The translations under genes and the position numbers were made by a program. The notes under the pieces are model-generated. The model was not told the origin of the DNA. It worked only from the letters and a program-made list of their open reading frames with translations, and did no database searches. This document shows, piece after piece, positions 215-13,022 of a stretch of DNA of 30,811 nt. The number at the start of each line of letters is the position of its first letter. Position 1 is the stretch's first letter. The stretch is from Eubacteriales bacterium (lineage in GTDB: Bacteria > Bacillota > Clostridia > Oscillospirales > CAG-272), in the NCBI GenBank assembly GCA_045641025.1, contig JAZUGD010000018.1, positions 1 through 30,811 of the forward strand, in the 5' to 3' direction.

Positions 215-826
215 TTATGATTCCGATAAGTCGTAACGCCCCTCGAGCGCGCGTCTCATCGTAATTTCGTCGGCGTACTCAATGTCGCCGCCTACGGGAA
301 CGCCGTTTGCGATTCTCGTGACGCGGATGCCGAGCGGGGATATGAGGCGCGAGAGATACATCGCCGTCGTCTCACCCTCTACCGTCGGGTTCGTCGCAAG
401 AATAACCTCGTTCACCTCGCCGTCCTTAAGACGGGGAAGCAAATCCTTAATCGTAAGCTCGTCGGGACCGACGCCGCTCATCGGAGATATCGCTCCGTGA
501 AGCACGTGGTACAGCCCGCGGTATCCGTGAGTACGCTCGATTGCGGTAACCGCCTTGAAATCCTCAACCACACAAATGGTCGAGCGGTCTCTCTCACCGT
601 CCTCACATACGGGGCAGAGAGAGCCGGCGGCGGAGACGTTCTTGCATACCGGGCAGAAGCCGAGCTCGTTCTTTACCGCAAGAAGCGCGTCCGAGAACGT
701 CTGCACGTCGCCGTCGTCCATTTCGAGAACGGAGAACGCCATGCGCAGTGCGGTTTTTCTGCCGATACCGTTCAGTCTGCGGAAGCAGTCCGCGAGTCTT
801 TCAATCTGTTCTATGTACTCCGCCAT
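215..826 (-). CDS. recR: Recombination mediator RecR
   Basis: HhH motif LNGIGRKTALR, C4 zinc finger (CPVC...CPVC), Toprim EVILATNPTVEGETTA, C-terminal GGDIEYADEITM; canonical dnaX-ybaB-recR synteny. Confidence 0.98.
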   Translation of the reverse strand: MAEYIEQIERLADCFRRLNGIGRKTALRMAFSVLEMDDGDVQTFSDALLAVKNELGFCPVCKNVSAAGSLCPVCEDGERDRSTICVVEDFKAVTAIERTHGYRGLYHVLHGAISPMSGVGPDELTIKDLLPRLKDGEVNEVILATNPTVEGETTAMYLSRLISPLGIRVTRIANGVPVGGDIEYADEITMRRALEGRYDLSES

Positions 827-1173
827 CAGAAAAGTCCGGGCATACTAAGCGCGCCCGTGATTTTACCCATTTCCTCGGAGTTCGTGTCGTTTACGGTTTT
901 GATAGCCTCGTTTACGCCCGCTACGAGAACGTCGGAGAGGGTTTCAACGTCGTCGGGGTCGACGAGAGCGGGGTCTATGTCGATGCCGAGAATTTCAAGC
1001 GTGCCTTTTATACGAACGGAAACGGCACCGCCGCCCGCCTTGATTTCATATTCCTTTTCGTCGAGCTCATCCTTGAGCGTCGCCATGTCTTCCTGCATTT
1101 TCTGAGCCTGACGGAGCATGCCGTTCATGTCGGTCGGTCCGCCGCCCATTCCCTTGGGTAATCTTGCTTTCAT
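826..1173 (-). CDS. ybaB: YbaB/EbfC family nucleoid-associated protein
   Basis: MNGMLRQAQKMQ...AGGGAVSV...DPDDVETLSDVLVAGVNEA; located between dnaX and recR; stop overlaps the recR start. Confidence 0.96.
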   Translation of the reverse strand: MKARLPKGMGGGPTDMNGMLRQAQKMQEDMATLKDELDEKEYEIKAGGGAVSVRIKGTLEILGIDIDPALVDPDDVETLSDVLVAGVNEAIKTVNDTNSEEMGKITGALSMPGLF

Positions 1174-1216
1174 CGTAAACCTGCCTTATATAAATGAATG
1201 AATAAGTTGTTATGCA

Positions 1217-1245
1217 AATGTAAAATACAGTTATGCGTTTGTCAA
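1217..1245 (-). promoter_or_regulatory. Probable internal sigma-A promoter for ybaB-recR
   Basis: TTGACA (1245-1240, overlapping the dnaX TGA), 17 nt, TACATT (1222-1217). Confidence 0.5.
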
Positions 1246-2807
1246 ATAAGCTCGTCGAGCGGGTCCGACGGCGGTGCCTTCTTCTGCGGAGCACCTACCG
1301 TTATCTCGGGAAGAGCAGAGCACTTGCCGGAGAGCAGAAGCGCCTCCGCTACCGCACGGAGAATGTTCGGGCGGTCTATCATCATCTTGCCGAACTGACT
1401 GCCGGGGATGATTTTCACGCGTTTGCCGTCCGCCGATACGTAAACGGATGAATCGGTAATGAAGCCCGCGGCCTCGGGGCTGCTCGTCTGCAGCTTGTCA
1501 AGCACCGCGCCGAGGTCGTCGAGATACGTCTCTCCGTCCAAGGGAGTCACGGTGACGGGCGCGGGAACAGCCTCTGCGGGAGTCTCCGCAGGTGCTTTCT
1601 CTTTCGGCTCCTCGTGAACCGGAGCGGGAGCGGGTGTCACCGGTGCGGCACCGAATTCCATAAGCTTTACCTTGTCCTCAAGCGCCGATACTCTTGCCGT
1701 AAGAGACGCGGCGGTGGTGCTGAGCGACGGGTCGCACAGACGTACGAGCGTAACCTCCGCGTTCAGTCTCTTGGTTTGGGGAGACTGAAGCATCGTTCTG
1801 TACGCGTCGTCCATCGCGCCGAGCTGATATACGAGAGCGGCAACGGAAAACTCCGAAGCGGCACCCGAGAGAAGCGCGGCGTCCGGCTCGGTCAGGTCAA
1901 GATAACTCTTGAAGTCCGTGGTGTATTTCGATACGAGCATGTCCTTCCAGAAAGAGATAAGCTCCTGCCAGAACACGCTTACGTCCTTCGATGATTCAAC
2001 AACCGTCTTAACTGCGGCGAAAATCGACGATATATCGCGCTTTGCAACCGCGTGAGCAACGGCGGCAACGGCATCGTACCCGGTCTGTCCGAGTATCTTC
2101 TGCGCCTTCTCGTCGTCTACCGAGGCACCTCCTCCGGCACAAAGCTCAAGGAGGCTGATGGCGTCGCGCATACCGCCCTCTGCGGCTTTCGCGATGCGTG
2201 CGGCGGCGTCATCGGTGAGCGAAATGTTTTCGCAATCCGAAATATATTTGAGTCTCGATACGATTTCACCGACACCGATGCGCCTGAAATCGAATCTCTG
2301 ACATCTTGATACTATGGTAACGGGGAGCTTGTGCATCTCCGTGGTCGCGAGGATGAAAAGCACGTGCTCCGGCGGCTCCTCGAGCGTTTTAAGCAGAGCG
2401 TTGAACGCCGAGCCCGAAAGCATGTGTACCTCGTCGATGATATATACTCTCCGCCTCAGCATAACGGGAGGATACGTGACCTCGTCGCGCAGCTCGCGGA
2501 TATAGTCAACGCCGTTGTTCGAGGCGGCGTCCATTTCCACAACGTCGGTAGCGATGCCGCTGTCAATCGCGCGGCACGCCTCGCACTCACCGCACGGCTC
2601 TCCGTCAACGGGGGAGAGGCAGTTTGCGGCCTTTGCGAGAATTTTCGCGGCGGAGGTTTTTCCCGTTCCGCGGGAACCGCAGAAGAGATATGCGTGAGAG
2701 AGACGCTCGTTTGCCACCTCGTACTTAAGAACGGAGGTGACGTGCTCCTGACCGCACATATCACGGAAGACAGAGGGACGGTATTTACGGTAAAGCGCGA
2801 GATGCAT
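1242..2807 (-). CDS. dnaX: DNA polymerase III subunit gamma/tau
   Basis: Start at MHLALYRKYRP (ATG 2807); Walker A GSRGTGKT, zinc module CLSPVDGEPCGECEAC, DAASNNGVD, IIDEVHML, SRC motif. The extra 70 aa in the ORF track overlap the SRP RNA. Confidence 0.98.
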   Translation of the reverse strand: MHLALYRKYRPSVFRDMCGQEHVTSVLKYEVANERLSHAYLFCGSRGTGKTSAAKILAKAANCLSPVDGEPCGECEACRAIDSGIATDVVEMDAASNNGVDYIRELRDEVTYPPVMLRRRVYIIDEVHMLSGSAFNALLKTLEEPPEHVLFILATTEMHKLPVTIVSRCQRFDFRRIGVGEIVSRLKYISDCENISLTDDAAARIAKAAEGGMRDAISLLELCAGGGASVDDEKAQKILGQTGYDAVAAVAHAVAKRDISSIFAAVKTVVESSKDVSVFWQELISFWKDMLVSKYTTDFKSYLDLTEPDAALLSGAASEFSVAALVYQLGAMDDAYRTMLQSPQTKRLNAEVTLVRLCDPSLSTTAASLTARVSALEDKVKLMEFGAAPVTPAPAPVHEEPKEKAPAETPAEAVPAPVTVTPLDGETYLDDLGAVLDKLQTSSPEAAGFITDSSVYVSADGKRVKIIPGSQFGKMMIDRPNILRAVAEALLLSGKCSALPEITVGAPQKKAPPSDPLDELI

Positions 2808-2852
2808 GAATATCGAACCTGCCTTTCGTGGAATTTCAGCCGACGGAAAAAC

Positions 2853-3127
2853 AAGACCATACACCCGAAGTTCGAACGAACGTTTCCACGCGCTCTCTCC
2901 GCAAGACGCTCCGGACAGGCAACCCTGCGGCACATCGCCGTATCCGCTTAATGCTGCTTGGTTCCCCACCTGACATGGTTCACGGACGACAATCGCGCAA
3001 GACCCATCCTTCATCACGAATTAACGAAGCGCTGACGTACAAACGACGCCCTCGCTCCGGGATACCACCCCTGCTGTAGCGGACTGCAGGTACAGGGAAC
3101 CGCTGCCTCCCCGGCTGGTATGGCCTT
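2853..3127 (-). ncRNA. ffs: Bacterial large signal recognition particle RNA (scRNA, with Alu domain)
   Basis: Minus strand has the Alu-type 5' part GCCGGGGAGGCAGCGGTTCCCTGTACCTGCAGTCCGCTACAGCAGGG and the helix-8 core GTGAACCATGTCAGGTGGGGAACCAAGCAGCATTAAG, closely resembling B. subtilis scRNA. Terminal stem AAACAAGGCCATAC (3131-3118) pairs with GTATGGTCTTGTTT (2862-2849). Canonical position upstream of dnaX. Ends are approximate. Confidence 0.95.
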
Positions 3128-3168
3128 GTTTATACGTCGGCATAGATAGCCGACATACTCCACCGATA

Positions 3169-3197
3169 ATTTTAGCACATAATTTCCCCGTTTGCAA
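3169..3197 (-). promoter_or_regulatory. Sigma-A promoter of the SRP RNA (and probably dnaX)
   Basis: TTGCAA (3197-3192), 17 nt, TGc-TAAAAT (3174-3169). Confidence 0.75.
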
Positions 3198-3262
3198 GGG
3201 GTTGCACGCCATAATTCACGGCTCGTCGAAAAAAGTTAACAAGTTACGGAAAATGAGCAAAT

Positions 3263-3640
3263 TTACTTCCGTGAGGCGCGTTTGCGTAAGAGTCCGACTG
3301 CACTTGATGTTCCGGCGATGATGAGGAACACCGCGAACACGCGCCGCACGGCACCCGCACCGAGAAATTCTCCCGCAAGCACCCCGAGGTACGAGCCGCC
3401 GATTGCAAGAAGCGCACACGCGGACGTCATTTTTATATCAAGATTCCTTTTGTATCTGTGGATGAAAAGCGAGGCGGAGGAGGAGAAAACGAAAAACAAA
3501 AGATTGCACCCCTGCGCGGAAAGCTGACCGAGCCCGCGCACGGCGGTCAGATAAATCACGAGGAGTCCGCCGCTCCCGATTCCCATTCCGGACAGCGTAC
3601 CTATCACGAGTGCCGTCGCCGCGTCAATAAGATAAGTCAT
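3263..3640 (-). CDS. TauE/SafE (TSUP) family transporter, half-size (125 aa)
   Basis: About 4 hydrophobic helices; Gly-rich signature GTLSGMGIGSGG; C-terminal VRRVFAVFLIIAG typical of TSUP repeat units. Confidence 0.8.
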   Translation of the reverse strand: MTYLIDAATALVIGTLSGMGIGSGGLLVIYLTAVRGLGQLSAQGCNLLFFVFSSSASLFIHRYKRNLDIKMTSACALLAIGGSYLGVLAGEFLGAGAVRRVFAVFLIIAGTSSAVGLLRKRASRK

Positions 3641-3745
3641 GGTAAACTGAGCATTCCTTTCGGCACTTCGTGTCTGAAGGCACGAACGTGCGGAGTGAAA
3701 TAACGGTATTTCAAATAAGGTTTATTCGGATGTTTCACACAGACC

Positions 3746-4147
3746 TCACGCGATAAGCATTCTGAAGCCCGAGAAGAGCAGTATTGCCGTAAAGAACGCG
3801 CGCAGCACGTCCGTGTTCAGCCTGTCCGACAGATATGCGCCGGCGATACCGGCCGCAAGTGCGGGGATAAGCATGACGGTCACCTCGTCAAGGCTCACGT
3901 TGCCCCGTGCGGCGTACGTAAGGGCTGAGACGAGCGACGTGGGCAGAATGACCGCAATAACCGATGCAAAGGCATCCTTCTCGCTTGAGGAAACGCCGTC
4001 TGCACGGCTTTTTACAAGCCGCCTGAAGGCATAGAACATAATGACTCCGCCTCCCGTGCCGATAAGACCGTTCATGAATCCCGCAAGCACGGCGGCACCG
4101 AGAAGGGCGGCAGTCCCCGCGTAACGTACGGCGGCGCCTTTTTTCAT
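3746..4147 (-). CDS. TauE/SafE (TSUP) family transporter, half-size (133 aa)
   Basis: Start MKKGAAV (ATG 4147, SD GGGAGG); AGFMNGLIGTGGG signature, PTSLVSA, GIAGAYLSDRL...LRAFF. Confidence 0.8.
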   Translation of the reverse strand: MKKGAAVRYAGTAALLGAAVLAGFMNGLIGTGGGVIMFYAFRRLVKSRADGVSSSEKDAFASVIAVILPTSLVSALTYAARGNVSLDEVTVMLIPALAAGIAGAYLSDRLNTDVLRAFFTAILLFSGFRMLIA

Positions 4148-4188
4148 AAATACCTCCCGAATCTTTTTCACTACATTATAAATAAATA

Positions 4189-4217
4189 TTGCCAAAACCC
4201 GTAAAGTGTGATAAAAT
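4189..4217 (+). promoter_or_regulatory. Sigma-A promoter for the ftsK operon
   Basis: TTGCCA (4189-4194), 17 nt, TGa-TAAAAT (4212-4217). Confidence 0.7.
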
Positions 4218-4325
4218 AGATAGGTAATACATAATGGTAAGTCTGTTTGTGCGGGACATTCCGCACCTGACTTTGAAATAATTATTCCCATGCGGAATAC
4301 AGAGATACGCAAAACGGAGGCGTCA

Positions 4326-6986
4326 ATGGCACAGAAAAAATCCGGAGGCGGAAAAAGCACAGCCGCACGCAAGGAAAAATTCAAGGTAACAAACAAAAAG
4401 AAGAAGAGCGGCGGCCGCACGGCGGGCGAGGTACGCGAAACGCGCAGAGAAAGCGCGGGCGCGCTCGTCGCACCGTATATCATCGGGCTTTTTGCGCTTC
4501 TTCTCGGTATATTCATTTACGCACAGCCTTATTCGGGAGTCGTCGGCGGCGCGATAGGCGCGTTCTTCAAGGGCGTCTTCTCGATAGGTGCGTTCTTCAT
4601 TCCGCCCGTGCTCCTCGTGCTCGCTCTCCGCGTGAGAAGCGACATTGAGGAAGGGCTCCGCGCTCTCCGCACGGTGTTCGGTATACTCATAATAATCCTT
4701 CTCTCGATGCTGCTCCATCTGTGGACGGGCGGCAAGCACGTGCTTGAGGCGGCGGTTCACTATGCGGACGGTAAGCTTCTCGTCGGCGGCGGTGTCGTCG
4801 GCGGTGTGCTCGGCGAACTGCTCTACAAGGGAATCAGAGTAGGCATGCCGATAATCGCGGTAATCGGGCTTATCGTGCTCATACCGCTTTTCGTCGGAAT
4901 ATCTCCGAGAAGCGTAGTCGCGTTCGTGACCGACAAGGCGGGCGAGGCTAAGGAAAGACGCGAAATAGAGGCTGAGGAGAACAGACTTCTCCGCGAGGAC
5001 AGACGTGCGCAGAGAGAAGCCGAGAGGGCGGAAAGATACGCCCGCGAGGCTGAGGCGCGTCCGGGCAGACAGATAGCGCTCGATGAGGAACCCGTACGTC
5101 CGAGACGAAACAGAAGCGACAAATACGTAGCCGACGTTCCGATGCCGGACGGCGACAAATACGAGGACGTGGCACCCGAGGTCGATCAGTCTCTCTTCGG
5201 ACGTGAGCCCGAAGAGGAAGAAGAGGAAGACGCACTCGACGGACGTCTTTCGGAGAAAATCGACGCATTTGACGAGAGCGACGAGGTCGTACCCGAAAAG
5301 GAGCCCGCGGTTGCGGAAAACCCGACTCCCGACCTCAAAAAGATATTTACCGAGCCCGCTGCGGGCGCCGACATAGACAAGCTCTGCGAGGATGCGGCAG
5401 GCGAGGACGCCTCCGCCGAGACGGAGTTTGAGGTTGTCAGAGAGCCCGTGCAGGAGAAAAAGCCGACTCTTAAGCCCGCACCCGAAAAACCGACGGAGCC
5501 GAAATACAAATTCCCGCCCATCGACCTTCTTATCGAGGATACCTCAAAGAAGGATCCGGGCGTCAAGGAAGAACTCAAGGAGAACGCCGCCAAACTCGTT
5601 GAAACCCTCGCAAGCTTCAACGTAAAGGCGAACGTCGTTGCAATATCCCGCGGACCTACGATTACGAGATACGAGCTCGAGCCCGAGCTCGGCACGAGAG
5701 TCCGCAACATTACGAACCTTATCGACGATATATCTCTCGCATTCGCGTCGAGCGGCGTCAGAGTCGAGCCCGTACCGGGTAAATCCGCCGTCGGCGTCGA
5801 GGTGCCGAACAAATCCTCCTCCGTCGTAAGACTGCGTACCCTCATCTCCGACAGCCGCTTCAAGAACTCTTCAAGCAAGCTTACCGTCGGTCTCGGTGAG
5901 GACGTTGCGGGCGACGCAATGTATACCGATATCGCCAAGATGCCGCATATGCTTATCGCAGGTACCACCGGCTCCGGTAAATCGGTGTGCATCAACTGCA
6001 TGCTCATAAGCCTGCTTTACAAGTCGACTCCCGACGAGGTAAAGTTCATCCTCATCGACCCCAAGAAGGTCGAATTCAACGTATACAACAGCCTGCCTCA
6101 TCTGCTCGTTCCCGTAGTCAGTGACCCCAAGAAGGCGGCGGGTGCACTCTCGTGGGCGGTATCCGAAATGGAGCGCCGCTTCGGACTTATCGAGAGAATG
6201 GGAGTGCGCGACCTCGAGCATTACAACGCGGCGGCAAAACTGCAGCCGGGATGCGAAATTCTCCCGCAGATAGTCATAGTAATAGACGAGCTTGCAGACC
6301 TCATGATGACCGCGCGCGACAGTGTCGAGGCATCCATCTGCCGTATCGCGCAGAAGGCGAGAGCCGCGGGTATGCACCTCGTAATCGGTACGCAGAGACC
6401 GTCCGTCGACGTCATCACCGGTCTTATCAAGTCGAACGTGCCGTCACGTATAGCGTTCACCGTAGTATCGCAGGTTGACTCGCGTACGGTTATCGACCGT
6501 GCGGGAGCGGAGCGCCTTATCGGACGCGGCGATATGCTTTATAACCCCGTCGGCGCACCGAAGCCCATGCGTGTGCAGGGCGCGTTCATCAGCGACGCGG
6601 AAATCGACGCGGTTGTCGAGTTCATCAAGAACAGCGGCGTGAGCGCCGGATACAGCGACGAGGTCATCGCGCAGATTGACCGCGAGGCAGAGCAGTGCGC
6701 TCCTCAGAAGAAGCGTGCGGGCGGCGACGACGATTCACCCTCCGAGGGCGGAGGAGACGAGGACGCTCTCTTTACGAAGGCGCTCGAAATCGCCGTAGAC
6801 GCGAGAAAGATATCGACCTCGCTGCTTCAGCGTAAGATGTCCGTCGGTTACGGCAGAGCGGCAAAAATCATCGACATGATGGAAAGCCGCGGATACATAT
6901 CGGCGCAGGACGGTCAGAAGCCGAGAGAGGTTCTCATTACGAGAGAACAGTTCCTCGAAATGTCCGTTCGCGGCGATGATGAATGA
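4326..6986 (+). CDS. ftsK: DNA translocase FtsK/SpoIIIE
   Basis: ATG 4326 with GGAGG SD; N-terminal TM domain, acidic linker, Walker A GTTGSGKS, IIIDELADLM-like Walker B, GTQRPSVDVITG, gamma domain STSLLQRKMSVGYGRAAKII. Confidence 0.97.
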   Translation: MAQKKSGGGKSTAARKEKFKVTNKKKKSGGRTAGEVRETRRESAGALVAPYIIGLFALLLGIFIYAQPYSGVVGGAIGAFFKGVFSIGAFFIPPVLLVLALRVRSDIEEGLRALRTVFGILIIILLSMLLHLWTGGKHVLEAAVHYADGKLLVGGGVVGGVLGELLYKGIRVGMPIIAVIGLIVLIPLFVGISPRSVVAFVTDKAGEAKERREIEAEENRLLREDRRAQREAERAERYAREAEARPGRQIALDEEPVRPRRNRSDKYVADVPMPDGDKYEDVAPEVDQSLFGREPEEEEEEDALDGRLSEKIDAFDESDEVVPEKEPAVAENPTPDLKKIFTEPAAGADIDKLCEDAAGEDASAETEFEVVREPVQEKKPTLKPAPEKPTEPKYKFPPIDLLIEDTSKKDPGVKEELKENAAKLVETLASFNVKANVVAISRGPTITRYELEPELGTRVRNITNLIDDISLAFASSGVRVEPVPGKSAVGVEVPNKSSSVVRLRTLISDSRFKNSSSKLTVGLGEDVAGDAMYTDIAKMPHMLIAGTTGSGKSVCINCMLISLLYKSTPDEVKFILIDPKKVEFNVYNSLPHLLVPVVSDPKKAAGALSWAVSEMERRFGLIERMGVRDLEHYNAAAKLQPGCEILPQIVIVIDELADLMMTARDSVEASICRIAQKARAAGMHLVIGTQRPSVDVITGLIKSNVPSRIAFTVVSQVDSRTVIDRAGAERLIGRGDMLYNPVGAPKPMRVQGAFISDAEIDAVVEFIKNSGVSAGYSDEVIAQIDREAEQCAPQKKRAGGDDDSPSEGGGDEDALFTKALEIAVDARKISTSLLQRKMSVGYGRAAKIIDMMESRGYISAQDGQKPREVLITREQFLEMSVRGDDE

Positions 6987-9795: not shown

Positions 9796-11826
9796 ATGGA
9801 AAATAACAAAATCCCGGGAGACGTGCCCGAAAGACCGTCCGGGACGCGGCACGTACGAGGTACGGAGCAGGGCGACACGGTAATGATACCGGTAACAAAA
9901 CGCCCCGATTCGGCAAAGCCGGGCGTTACCCGTGTGCCGAAGCCGACTCCCGTGCCGAGACCCACTCCCGTAACCCGTCAGATGCCCGTATCGGGAAGCG
10001 GTACACAACGTCCCGTGCAGAGGGGTACGGTTCCGCGTCCGACGCCCGTATCACGTCCGGTTCCCACCGGCACCGACATGAACGCCGAAACGCGGCAGAT
10101 TCCCGTGCAGAGAAGTGCACCTCAGGTAAGCCGCCCTGCACCTCAGTCCGCAGTCAGACCGCAGACCGACGTAGGCGGTGAAACGAGACAGATTCCCGTG
10201 CAGAGAAGCGCACCGCAGGTGAGCCGCCCTGCACCTCAGTCCGCAGTCAGACCGCAGACCGACGTAGGCGGTGAAACGCGTCAGATTCCCGTGCAGAGAA
10301 GTGCACCTCAGGTAAGCCGTCCCGCACCTCAGTCTGCAGTCAGACCGCAGACCGACGTAGGCGGTGAAACGAGACAGATTCCCGTGCAGAGAAGTGCGCA
10401 GACAAGCCGTCCCGCACCTCAGCACTCTGTCAGACCGCAGACCGACGTCGGCGGTGAGACGAGACAGATACCCGTGCACAAGCCCGCTGCGTCCGATAGC
10501 GGAGAAATGTCCGCCACCCGTCCCGTCAAGCTGAAGACCGAACTCAACCCCGAGGTAACCGCGAAGGTAAATCCCGAGGCTACCGTCGTAATAAAAACGC
10601 CCGCACCCGTTGCCGTAAACGGCGGCGCCGACGACGGCGGTACGAGACCGATGCATTTGCCGAAAGCCGAGCCCGAGAAACCGAAAAAAGAAAAGGCTTC
10701 CTTCTTCTCAAGGCTTCAGACTGCGGGAAGCGAGAGCGGCGGCAACACCGTCATGAGCATAGTCAAAGCGGTGGTTTACATGGTGCTCGTGCTTCTGGTT
10801 TCCGTCGGCATATCTCTTTTCATTATCCTCGTCGGCAACGACGTTTTCGCATTTGTCAAAACGGACGAGGAGATAACCGTCACGATTCCCGAGGATGCGG
10901 GTATAGAGGACGTCGCGGATATCCTTGCCGAAAACGGAGTAATCAAGTATCCGGGCATCTTCAAGTTCTACGCGTCGTATAAGAATGACGACGGCAAGTT
11001 CCTCGCGGGAACTTATACCGTAACTCCCGCCACCGACTACGAGGACCTTCTGTACGGCTTCAAGGAGCACGAACCCGAGGGTACGTCGTGGATAACGATT
11101 CCCGAGGGCTTTACCACCGACGAGATTATAAACCTTCTCGTCGAGTCGGGCATCGGTACCAAGGAGAAATACGTTGACGTCATCAACAATTACGATTTCG
11201 ACTACTGGTTCGTTGACGAGCTTGACGCGACCGACTGGAAGAGCACGGGCCGCTTCTACCGTCTTGACGGATACCTTTTCCCCGATACGTACGAGTTCTA
11301 CAATCAGTCGTCCGAGAAGACCGTTATAAACAAGCTGCTTGCGCGCTTCAACGTCATATACGGTGACAAATATAAGGAGACCGCAACGTCCGCGGGCTTC
11401 ACCACCGACCAGGTGCTTATCATTGCCTCCATGATAGAGAAGGAGGCGGGCATGGCGGCGGACTACAACACCGTTTCCTCCGTCTTCCGCAACAGACTCG
11501 CAAGCGACTATTATCCGCGTCTCGAGAGCGACGCTACGATACTGTACGCAATCCACCACGATACGGGTACCCGCCCGAATACGTGCACGGGCGAGGACCT
11601 CAAATACGACTCTCCGTACAACTCGTACCTGAACGACGGGCTTCCTCCGGGACCCATCGCAAACCCGAGTGCGAGTGCGATAAACGCCGCGCTGACCCCG
11701 GCAGACACGAACTATTATTATTTCGTATCGTACGAGGGCAAGACCTACTTTGCCTCGACCAACGAGGAGCACGAAGCAAACAAAGCCTACGTGAACGGAC
11801 TCCGCGAGCAGTCGGCACAGCCGTAA
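9796..11826 (+). CDS. mltG: Endolytic transglycosylase MltG with a long repetitive cytoplasmic N-terminus
   Basis: Single TM near aa 320-348, then a YceG domain: TIPEGFT, LDGYLFPDTY, ASMIEKEA (catalytic Glu), SPYNSY, GLPPGPIANPS, YYYFV. Confidence 0.95.
   Translation: MENNKIPGDVPERPSGTRHVRGTEQGDTVMIPVTKRPDSAKPGVTRVPKPTPVPRPTPVTRQMPVSGSGTQRPVQRGTVPRPTPVSRPVPTGTDMNAETRQIPVQRSAPQVSRPAPQSAVRPQTDVGGETRQIPVQRSAPQVSRPAPQSAVRPQTDVGGETRQIPVQRSAPQVSRPAPQSAVRPQTDVGGETRQIPVQRSAQTSRPAPQHSVRPQTDVGGETRQIPVHKPAASDSGEMSATRPVKLKTELNPEVTAKVNPEATVVIKTPAPVAVNGGADDGGTRPMHLPKAEPEKPKKEKASFFSRLQTAGSESGGNTVMSIVKAVVYMVLVLLVSVGISLFIILVGNDVFAFVKTDEEITVTIPEDAGIEDVADILAENGVIKYPGIFKFYASYKNDDGKFLAGTYTVTPATDYEDLLYGFKEHEPEGTSWITIPEGFTTDEIINLLVESGIGTKEKYVDVINNYDFDYWFVDELDATDWKSTGRFYRLDGYLFPDTYEFYNQSSEKTVINKLLARFNVIYGDKYKETATSAGFTTDQVLIIASMIEKEAGMAADYNTVSSVFRNRLASDYYPRLESDATILYAIHHDTGTRPNTCTGEDLKYDSPYNSYLNDGLPPGPIANPSASAINAALTPADTNYYYFVSYEGKTYFASTNEEHEANKAYVNGLREQSAQP
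10087..10476 (+). repeat. In-frame tandem repeat, 93-nt unit (31 aa ETRQIPVQRSAPQVSRPAPQSAVRPQTDVGG), about 4.2 copies
   Basis: Units start at 10087, 10180, 10273, 10366 (90-nt variant) and 10456 (partial); copies differ mostly at synonymous sites. Confidence 0.97.
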
Positions 11827-11831
11827 CGAGC

Positions 11832-11859
11832 GCAGAACGCAGAGTGTAGAGTGCAGAAC
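11832..11859 (+). repeat. Degenerate heptamer tandem repeat
   Basis: GCAGAAC GCAGAGT GTAGAGT GCAGAAC, starting 5 nt after the mltG stop. Confidence 0.7.
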
Positions 11860-12001
11860 TAATGTAAAAAACCGTTCGGATTTATTTGCGACAGCCTGAT
11901 AAGGATGTTTTTCGGGATGTGGATTTTGTGCGGTAAAATCCGATGCTCGTTATGGATGTGGACAAATTAGAATTTGTAAGGCTGTCCAGGGAAGGAATAG
12001 A

Positions 12002-12328
12002 ATGACAAAAAGGAAAGGAAAAAAGCAACCAAACATACGTATTGTACTTTTAGCTTACTTTCATCGCTATGGATGGATAGCCTTGATGCTTCTTCTTATG
12101 TATATCACAAAAAGTAAGTATGCCATTGGCATAAGTTTAATCGCATTCTCAATTTGGTCATTCTTTGGGTATATATTCCGATGGAAGCATATTTATTGTT
12201 CAAACCAGAATGCCTATCATCAGCCCATGACACCGGACAAGATTCGTTGGGATACTGTCAAAAAAATAGATGCCTATGGCGTTCCTGCTATATTTATGAT
12301 TTTGGGGGTTGCATTATTATTGGTTTAG
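12002..12328 (+). CDS. Hypothetical small membrane protein (about 3 TM, 108 aa), horizontally acquired
   Basis: SD GGAAGGA upstream; basic N-terminus, hydrophobic segments near aa 13-35, 40-59 and 91-108; AT-rich codons unlike its neighbours. Confidence 0.8.
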   Translation: MTKRKGKKQPNIRIVLLAYFHRYGWIALMLLLMYITKSKYAIGISLIAFSIWSFFGYIFRWKHIYCSNQNAYHQPMTPDKIRWDTVKKIDAYGVPAIFMILGVALLLV

Positions 12329-12364
12329 ATTATATAGTGCAAATCCCGGTTTGTTGAGATGAAA

Positions 12365-12405
12365 AAATAACCCTCAGAAAAGAAACTCTTTTCTGAGGGT
12401 TATTT
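12365..12405. terminator. Bidirectional intrinsic terminator (19-bp perfect stem)
   Basis: AAATAACCCTCAGAAAAGA-AAC-TCTTTTCTGAGGGTTATTT, between the convergent orphan gene and udg. Confidence 0.85.
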
Positions 12406-12455
12406 GTTTCAAAAAACATCCTTATGGGGCTCAACCCTTCCGAACGGTTTTGTTT

Positions 12456-13022
12456 TTATTCTTCAAAAGGATTGTAATTTCCGTCGAGGTAGGCTTTTAT
12501 GTTCTTCATGTCGGTGAACATGTCTTCTTTTCTTCTCGGGTCGCGCAGGAGCGCCGCGGGGTGGAAGACCGCCGTCATGACGAAATTACCCTTCCTCACA
12601 AATTTTCCGTGCTCTTTTGTAATCTTGAAATCGGGAGAAATCAGCCTCATCGCCGATATTCTGCCGAGGCACACGATTATCTCGGGGCGGATGAGCTTCA
12701 CCTGCTCGCGCAGGTAACCGATGCACGCGTCCTGCTCCGCGGGGAGCGGGTCGCGGTTTTTCGGCGGGCGGCATTTCAGTATGTTTGCGATATATACGTC
12801 CTCACGCGGAATGTCAACGGCGCGAAGGTACGTGTCAAGCAGTTTTCCGGCGGCACCGACGAACGGTACGCCGGAGAGGTCCTCTTTTTCTCCGGGAGCC
12901 TCGCCTACGAACATAAGCCGCGCATCGGTCGAGCCGGTACCGAACACGCAGTTCGTGCGGCTTTCGCACAGCGGGCAGGCGGTGCATTCCCGGCAGGTTT
13001 TTTCAAGCTCTTCCCAGTTCAT
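12456..13022 (-). CDS. udg: Uracil-DNA glycosylase, family 4 (Fe-S type)
   Basis: CRECTACPLC Fe-S ligands, GEAPG, KCRPP, HPAA. Confidence 0.96.
   Translation of the reverse strand: MNWEELEKTCRECTACPLCESRTNCVFGTGSTDARLMFVGEAPGEKEDLSGVPFVGAAGKLLDTYLRAVDIPREDVYIANILKCRPPKNRDPLPAEQDACIGYLREQVKLIRPEIIVCLGRISAMRLISPDFKITKEHGKFVRKGNFVMTAVFHPAALLRDPRRKEDMFTDMKNIKAYLDGNYNPFEE

Follow-up and report, generated by a model that had tools for sequence, protein, structure and literature searches.

Two short dyad sites that flank a single small gene in the genome of a gut Clostridia bacterium (Eubacteriales, lineage CAG-272) are cassette boundaries and homology breakpoints. The same cargo is found on different platforms and different cargos are found on one platform, and the arrangement therefore amounts to a two-way modular shuffle with its breakpoints at the dyads. 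We lean towards the reading that the dyads are boundary sites of promoterless cassettes that are exchanged between platforms by recombination. A preceding sequence-only reading of the same DNA had proposed a solo cassette of a site-specific gene-shuffling system; its boundaries and its exchange unit are borne out, whereas the action of a site-specific recombinase is what we infer from sequence comparison. A literature search by motif sequence and keywords returned no published description of this cassette system, which is apparently undescribed so far.

A low-GC gene between two conserved dyads

The window, by which we mean the whole analysed stretch of 30,811 nt (contig JAZUGD010000018.1), belongs to a 2.13 Mb assembly that is 95.6% complete. 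It also encodes, at 2857-3123 on the minus strand, a large bacterial SRP RNA (Rfam RF01854, 176 bits), which fits a Firmicutes-type genome. The cargo gene (12002-12328, plus strand) encodes a predicted 3-TM protein of 108 aa and is located between a YceG/MltG gene on the left (9796-11826, plus strand) and a family-4 UDG gene on the right (12456-13022, minus strand), the protein of which returned no match on record in an exact-protein look-up. As had been noticed before, the ORF is low in GC, its 33-38% contrasting with 53% genome-wide and 52-63% in the genes on either side. Dyad 1, the 5′ cassette boundary site on the plus strand, reads GACAAATTAGAATTTGT at 11961-11977, or ACAAATTAGAATTTGT at 11962-11977 in its 16-bp form with 7-bp arms. 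It is separated by 24 nt from the ATG at 12002. From its sequence, this leader (11978-12001, plus strand) carries an RBS, GGAAGGA, at 11990-11996. Dyad 2, the 3′ boundary site GCAAATCCCGGTTTGT (12339-12354, plus strand), starts 10 nt past the stop at 12328 and is identical to dyad 1 at 10/16 positions. We thus confirm both 16-bp dyads with their coordinates, gaps and identity, and the cassette between them has no promoter of its own. In the predicted mRNA fold, dyads 1 and 2 show no long-range pairing with each other; the leader segment AAGGCUGUCCAG (11978-11989) pairs with the codons of the conserved YGWIAL motif (12070-12085), also in the centroid structure.

The cargo protein matched neither a Pfam family nor a named Atlas cluster. 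It has 92 homologues of 108-111 aa with the invariant motifs LAY.HRYGW, WKHIYCS, MTP and DAYG (His, Cys, Trp) and, judged by its sequence, is a real family under selection. We collected 72 homologous loci from Oscillospiraceae, Acutalibacteraceae, Faecousia, Ruminococcus and Acetatifactor MAGs. The expectation that homologues would carry the same flanks was realized in part, with dyad sites kept at about a quarter of these loci in two flavours. Flavour A, ACAAACTTGAATTTGAC, is located directly 5′ of the RBS, and flavour B, (TG)ACAAATTCCAATTTGTC, often contains the TGA stop. The AAATTCC..TTTGT motif that the sequence-only reading named for gut Clostridia turned out to be the B-type site of another lineage.

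The dyads are strongly enriched and precisely placed. The position weight matrix proposed in the earlier reading matched three times in the window (0.02 expected) and 26 times in the whole genome, where 1.3 matches were expected and the reversed control yielded none. The pattern GACAAAY-N3-R-ATTTG occurs 21 times in the genome against 0.18 expected and 0 in the reversed control; shifting its spacing by one base abolished all genome matches. Twenty-four oriented genome sites, dyad 1 among them, share the consensus G-ACAAA(T/C)-C(G/A)G(A/G)-ATTTG, and each separates a platform module (X-module or terminator, see below) from variable cargo. Placement was assessed in 75 related loci that comprise 343 kb, 24% of it intergenic. 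The predicted bias towards gene borders is pronounced: of the 38 sites found when up to one mismatch was allowed, 37 are intergenic and close to ATGs or stops. Among these, 12 A-type sites precede an ATG by 0-60 nt and 11 B-type sites lie ≤25 nt past a stop; reversed controls gave 0.

The conserved core comprises 16 nt with a one-sided extension of ≤8 nt, and a second pair of arms is not visible. The dyads had been described as directly repeated, a description that is doubtful for this genome, where they fit inverted, inward-pointing copies of one asymmetric 16-mer, ACAAAY-CGGR-ATTTG, better than direct repeats. Inward inverted flanking sites are also found in L133, L141 and L182. In the lineage of L060, L103 and L039, on the other hand, a shared right-hand extension, TTTG(A/T)CGAG(G/C)TG, favours the direct orientation. 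The centres of the two dyads differ (TTAG vs CCCGG) and both travel with the cargo. The arms are conserved across families without compensatory change and the predicted dyad hairpins are weak, −1.7 to −2.9 kcal/mol. Recognition therefore points to a sequence-specific rather than a structural mode. We take a likeness of the dyads to CodY, Rex, TnrA, parS, Noc, Spo0A or IHF sites to be rejected, because arms or spacings misfit, and presumably the sites bear no likeness to dif consensus sequences either. In the window and five repeat loci, no Rfam match was obtained for the dyads, the X-module or the non-coding inserts.

Platform modules and a carrier within a split terminator

Two features had been missed in the earlier reading: dyad 1 ends a repeated module, and the whole arrangement forms a larger unit inside a split terminator hairpin. 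A repeated module of ~85 nt (about 11893-11960), which we call the X-module, has dyad 1 as its inner end. At least 10 copies with 75-90% identity are present in the genome, each terminating in GACAAAT-N4-ATTTG, followed on the 3′ side by the RBS and ATG of an unrelated ORF (C18, C23, C135, C161, C191) or by repeat-rich non-coding DNA. A DNA search of 60 relatives, including six genomes of the same genus, found no true copy. From one pattern scan, the X-module core GGATTTTGTGGGGCAAAATCCGATGCTCGTTATAACTGTGGAC was detected at >60 loci in gut and rumen metagenomes, where it is very abundant and highly conserved (L112-L191). A terminator hairpin, GGCGTGACC...GGTCACGCC, often lies ahead of it, and the outer stem of this hairpin varies with compensation.

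A consensus fold of 52 X-modules gave one invariant hairpin only, and consequently provides no covariation evidence. Inspection of the X-module in this genome by eye revealed no convincing sigma-A, sigma-54, sigma-D or sporulation-sigma promoter; by parallel with L141, TAAAAT at 11934-11939 is a possible −10 candidate. The X-module is located upstream of the cargo in this genome, and downstream and convergent in one metagenomic lineage. Since it can occupy either side of the cargo, it is not simply a promoter.

Dyad 2 leads into a strong terminator hairpin, the T-module (12362-12408, no strand assigned), with a stem of 19-22 bp. The cassettes of C161 and C191 lead into homologous hairpins, the stems of which have changed in a compensating manner; in C161, an unrelated 109-aa membrane ORF is succeeded by a dyad 2 site, ~10 nt and the homologous terminator. 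Genome-wide, the outer ends of X- and T-modules start with ATAAGGA(A/T)GTTTTT, and in the window these ends are inverted relative to each other (11899-11912 and 12412-12425). The carrier left end (11885-11960, plus strand) comprises the inverted-repeat end ATAAGGATGTTTTT at 11899-11912 and then the X-module, GGATTTTGTGCGGTAAAATCCGATGCTCG..., and the carrier right end (12412-12438, minus strand) is an inverted copy of ATAAGGATGTTTTT with 90% complementarity to 11893-11912. Outside these ends lie the two halves of a host terminator hairpin, AAAACCGTTCGGA (11868-11880, plus strand) and TCCGAACGGTTTT (12439-12451, plus strand), which are 100% complementary to each other. This terminator is split here, while ~25 intact copies elsewhere in the genome have loops of 3-6 nt. 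A stereotyped terminator, AAAACCGTTCGG-loop-CCGAACGGTTTT, is seen at 11828-11880 of the window and at ~25 other places, often flanked by heptamer repeats of the GCAGAGT/GCAGAAC type. The inverted outer ends within the split hairpin halves delimit a ~550-bp carrier (11885-12438) that occupies the loop of this terminator, which yceG and udg share. In four independent mouse-gut runs, contigs either break off or diverge from the window at 11885-11888 and 12438-12441, and the summed contig depth of the X-module amounts to 800-5400 compared to 3-10 in the flanks.

The sites also bound DNA without a gene. C38:190-555 is a complete non-coding element of ~365 nt with a site at both ends, located between two terminators. 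Elements of this type are internally palindromic and multi-copy, and the heptamers GCATTCAG and GCGGAATTC are repeated in runs near their ends; further places are C68, C270, C143, C4, C36, C77, C262 and C314, and many contigs stop inside the element. C257:8028-8140 contains a T-module and, after it, two inward-facing sites with only ~14 nt between them, which could represent a nearly empty cassette position.

Exchange at the dyads and cassette arrays

Comparison of related loci delimits the exchanged unit at both ends. In the Logan contig L024, the whole carrier is located behind a GAF-domain gene instead of yceG; its protein is 97% identical, and nucleotide identity to the window is 98% from about 11886 onward. 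In L237 the platform itself is different. Compared with C18, the L237 protein is 86% identical. At the nucleotide level, dyad 1 agrees at 17/17 positions, leader plus ORF show 92.3% identity and the region of dyad 2 shows 92%. The flanks outside both dyads are unrelated, and homology stops just past dyad 2. In L237, dyad 1 is preceded by a TTGCGT-16-TGaTACAAT promoter and the last part of a tyrosine-recombinase gene, and another terminator follows dyad 2. The leader is kept together with the ORF, and dyad 2 is kept, in both L237 and L024. The proposal that site, RBS, ORF and site form one exchange unit thus holds for the L237 comparison, with breakpoints at the dyads.

A second type of difference is found between L038 and L039, which are 99.2% identical over 3.5 kb and differ exactly at a site: where L038 carries a single CAAATTCCAATTTGTCGAAC, L039 carries it twice, in direct orientation, with an 86-nt insert in between. 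Past the site, identity falls to 86.8%. The 3.5-kb stretch, an array plus a portion of a large gene beside it, occurs in MAGs labelled Oscillospiraceae and Acutalibacteraceae, the other loci of which match each other at only 65-88%. As the two MAGs are not close relatives, either recent transfer or a binning error would account for the near-identity (99%) of the array. Of the empty or single-site alleles that had been anticipated, this pair with one and two sites is the instance found; an empty platform, made up of an X-module, one site and a reversed promoter module, was encountered in 0 of 64 X-module loci. The yceG-udg region of same-genus genomes offered no empty junction, the two genes being non-adjacent there at identities of 67-76%. 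The circle junction proposed earlier, or a skipping joint, was absent from the contigs of the four runs, in which rare forms are invisible.

As the sequence-only reading had suggested, many gut Clostridia carry the motif beside small accessory ORFs, and it is also found in arrays. The array in L060 starts with a TGCTATAAT promoter, an A site and the family ORF, continues with a B site, a 10-12-nt spacer and an A site ahead of a radical-SAM gene, and proceeds through two further B-spacer-A junctions to a GNAT gene and a membrane-protein gene. Similar arrays are present in L103, L104 and L105, one of them behind rplM-rpsI. Arrays are co-oriented, with a −10 box 6-10 nt before the first site, and contain genes for GNAT proteins, NTP transferases/nucleotidyltransferases, radical SAM, MatE and membrane proteins, a cargo that is typical accessory content. 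Five array-bearing genomes possess 5-17 sites compared to 0-2 in controls. Across 400 Clostridia-class genomes, a loose pattern was several-fold above control, usually with 0-5 copies, making this genome with 21 copies an outlier. By sequence pattern, the cassette system is widespread in gut Clostridia.

Mechanism, alternatives and related systems

In the mechanism that we propose, the cassette unit would consist of dyad, RBS, ORF and dyad, would lack its own promoter and would be swapped between expression platforms by crossover at the 16-24-bp sites. A platform would supply a terminator plus promoter, or an X-module, 5′ of the cassette and a terminator module 3′ of it. The ~550-bp carrier would be a non-autonomous element that landed in the yceG/udg terminator loop. 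From this position, the cassette is probably transcribed by read-through from yceG, by the X-module or by both, and transcription would stop at the carrier's own terminator. Recombination between like sites would generate arrays with junctions of B site, 10-12 nt and A site. Because the centres differ and travel with the cargo, exchange seems to take place at the outer arms or at the B-spacer-A junction of a circular form. The differing centres misfit a simple one-site circle with central crossover.

The exchange enzyme would be unlinked and act in trans. The linked tyrosine recombinase for which the earlier reading had suggested a test was not found: among ~100 site loci no recombinase is linked, except for the tyrosine-recombinase gene upstream of L237. 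There, the cassette (L237:23-520) is located directly downstream of a gene fragment that has no NCBIfam match and is 23% identical to the C116 recombinase of this genome; this single case may be coincidence. Tyrosine recombinases are the sole recombinase class detected in the genome, with two members that score 87 and 47 bits compared to the integron-integrase cut-off of 265. Neither is near a site, and one is Xer-like, a partial gene on C149. Serine recombinases, Y1 (PF01797) and IS110 enzymes were not found in the 95.6%-complete genome, although a MAG can miss repeated genes.

The main rival to exchange by recombination at the dyads, compatible with their reading as cassette boundaries and rather unlikely as the sole explanation, assigns them a cis-regulatory role. 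The dyads would be parts of a portable expression adaptor, either an operator over +1 or an mRNA 5′-end and post-stop element bound by a conserved protein, and shuffling would be a by-product of homologous or microhomology recombination between these conserved sequences, in line with what has been proposed for PeSL motifs in T4-type phages (PMC2839356, PMC4122927). In many seemingly unrelated promoter modules the 5′ site lies 6-10 nt past a good sigma-A −10 box, so that the transcript starts with the site; this spacing also suggests an mRNA 5′-end or operator role and counts against our preferred reading. The 3′ site, 0-13 nt past the stop and ahead of a terminator, likewise suits regulation, as do arms conserved without compensation, which is as expected for a sequence-specific binder, and the indel between 22-bp direct repeats could arise by enzyme-free deletion. 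A regulatory role fits poorly, however, with sites that bound promoterless non-coding inserts between two terminators, with A sites inside arrays away from the mRNA 5′ end and with the weakness of the hairpins. Furthermore, 16-24 bp is short for RecA-dependent exchange, and in this genome we found no site ahead of a core gene.

Less probable still, the dyads could represent terminal inverted repeats. The unit would then be a non-autonomous transposon resembling a mobile insertion cassette, or a MITE that carries a passenger gene, and would rely on a transposase from another locus. The inward inverted sites of this genome, L133, L141 and L182 agree with such ends, which also bound multi-copy non-coding elements, and the outer carrier ends, ATAAGGATGTTTTT, are inverted as well. 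Yet target-site duplications were seen at none of the sites and neither a Y1 nor an IS110 transposase was detected, which weakens this explanation. The DNA outside the sites is always a platform module and not a random target, no autonomous copy with such ends was seen, and sites of the L060/L103 lineage share the direct-orientation extension. That the dyads are chance palindromes in AT-rich intergenic DNA is refuted. The local DNA is AT-rich and each hairpin taken singly is weak, but 21 genomic copies at exact spacing against 0 in the control, and sites kept around homologues in other families, show that the dyads did not arise by chance.

Among known systems, integrons and CALINs resemble the cassettes described here in their promoterless, compact RBS-ORF units with accessory or resistance-like cargo, in one-orientation arrays behind a promoter that adjoins the first site (an analogy of layout only) and in an ORF between a site and its inverted copy, comparable to core and inverse core sites. 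The array junction of B site, 10-12 nt and A site (~42-45 nt, A being close to the reverse complement of B) corresponds to a minimal attC layout of two simple sites. In contrast to integrons, no IntI-type integrase was found in the genome or beside the arrays. Integron attC sites are imperfect palindromes of 57-141 nt with RYYYAAC and GTTRRRY boxes, while the solo sites here are 16-24 bp long, with arms (GACAAAC, GTTTGTC) that fit these boxes at 5/7 positions only, in agreement with the earlier remark that attC boxes are lacking. The loci are many, small and scattered over each genome rather than forming one platform, their cassettes are found in carriers within terminator loops, and the hosts are Clostridia. 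By analogy, one could tentatively, and with considerable doubt, regard the dyads as an integron-like system without a dedicated linked integrase. The ~45-nt B-spacer-A site would then be a minimal attC, the promoter-adjacent A site would be attI, and a trans-acting, possibly housekeeping, tyrosine recombinase would move cassettes among dozens of scattered platforms, many of them in terminator loops.

The dif modules of Acinetobacter plasmids (PMC6449649, PMC7399989, PMC13141974) are likewise gene modules bounded by short, often inverted sites in varied contexts; they lack a recombinase of their own, and a host tyrosine recombinase is presumed to act on them in trans. Their sites are 28-bp XerC-spacer-XerD sequences with a 6-bp centre, compared to 16-24 bp and a 4-nt centre here, and the present cassettes are chromosomal, single promoterless ORFs joined precisely to promoter or terminator modules. 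In PeSL cassettes of T4-type phages (PMC2839356, PMC4122927), conserved regulatory motifs flank small variable ORFs and contain the breakpoints of insertions, deletions and replacements, the motif being both expression signal and recombination handle. Here, the cassettes reside in bacterial chromosomes and not in phage hyperplastic regions, and what they share is a 16-bp dyad that follows the promoter as well as the stop codon, not a promoter-terminator composite. Terminator-promoter modules do flank the cassettes, with breakpoints at the dyad and not in the composite. Mobile insertion cassettes or MITEs and REP/RAYT elements share a non-autonomous, multi-copy nature, inverted-repeat boundaries, occasional passenger genes and hairpins or terminators. 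They differ in that no target-site duplication, cognate transposase or Y1 enzyme was detected here and in that the flanks are specific modules.

As no recombinase is located nearby, current mobile-element finders would miss such cassettes. The consensus GACAAAY-N4-RTTTGTC, with lineage-specific centres, offers a handle to catalogue cassettes, to profile for the enzyme and to probe excision by PCR. Even if the dyads are regulatory, they would constitute a portable and widely shared expression adaptor. If they are true recombination sites, they define a large, unnamed gene-exchange route in dominant anaerobes of the mammalian gut, along which acetyltransferases, nucleotidyltransferases, efflux and membrane proteins would move as ready-to-express single-gene units.
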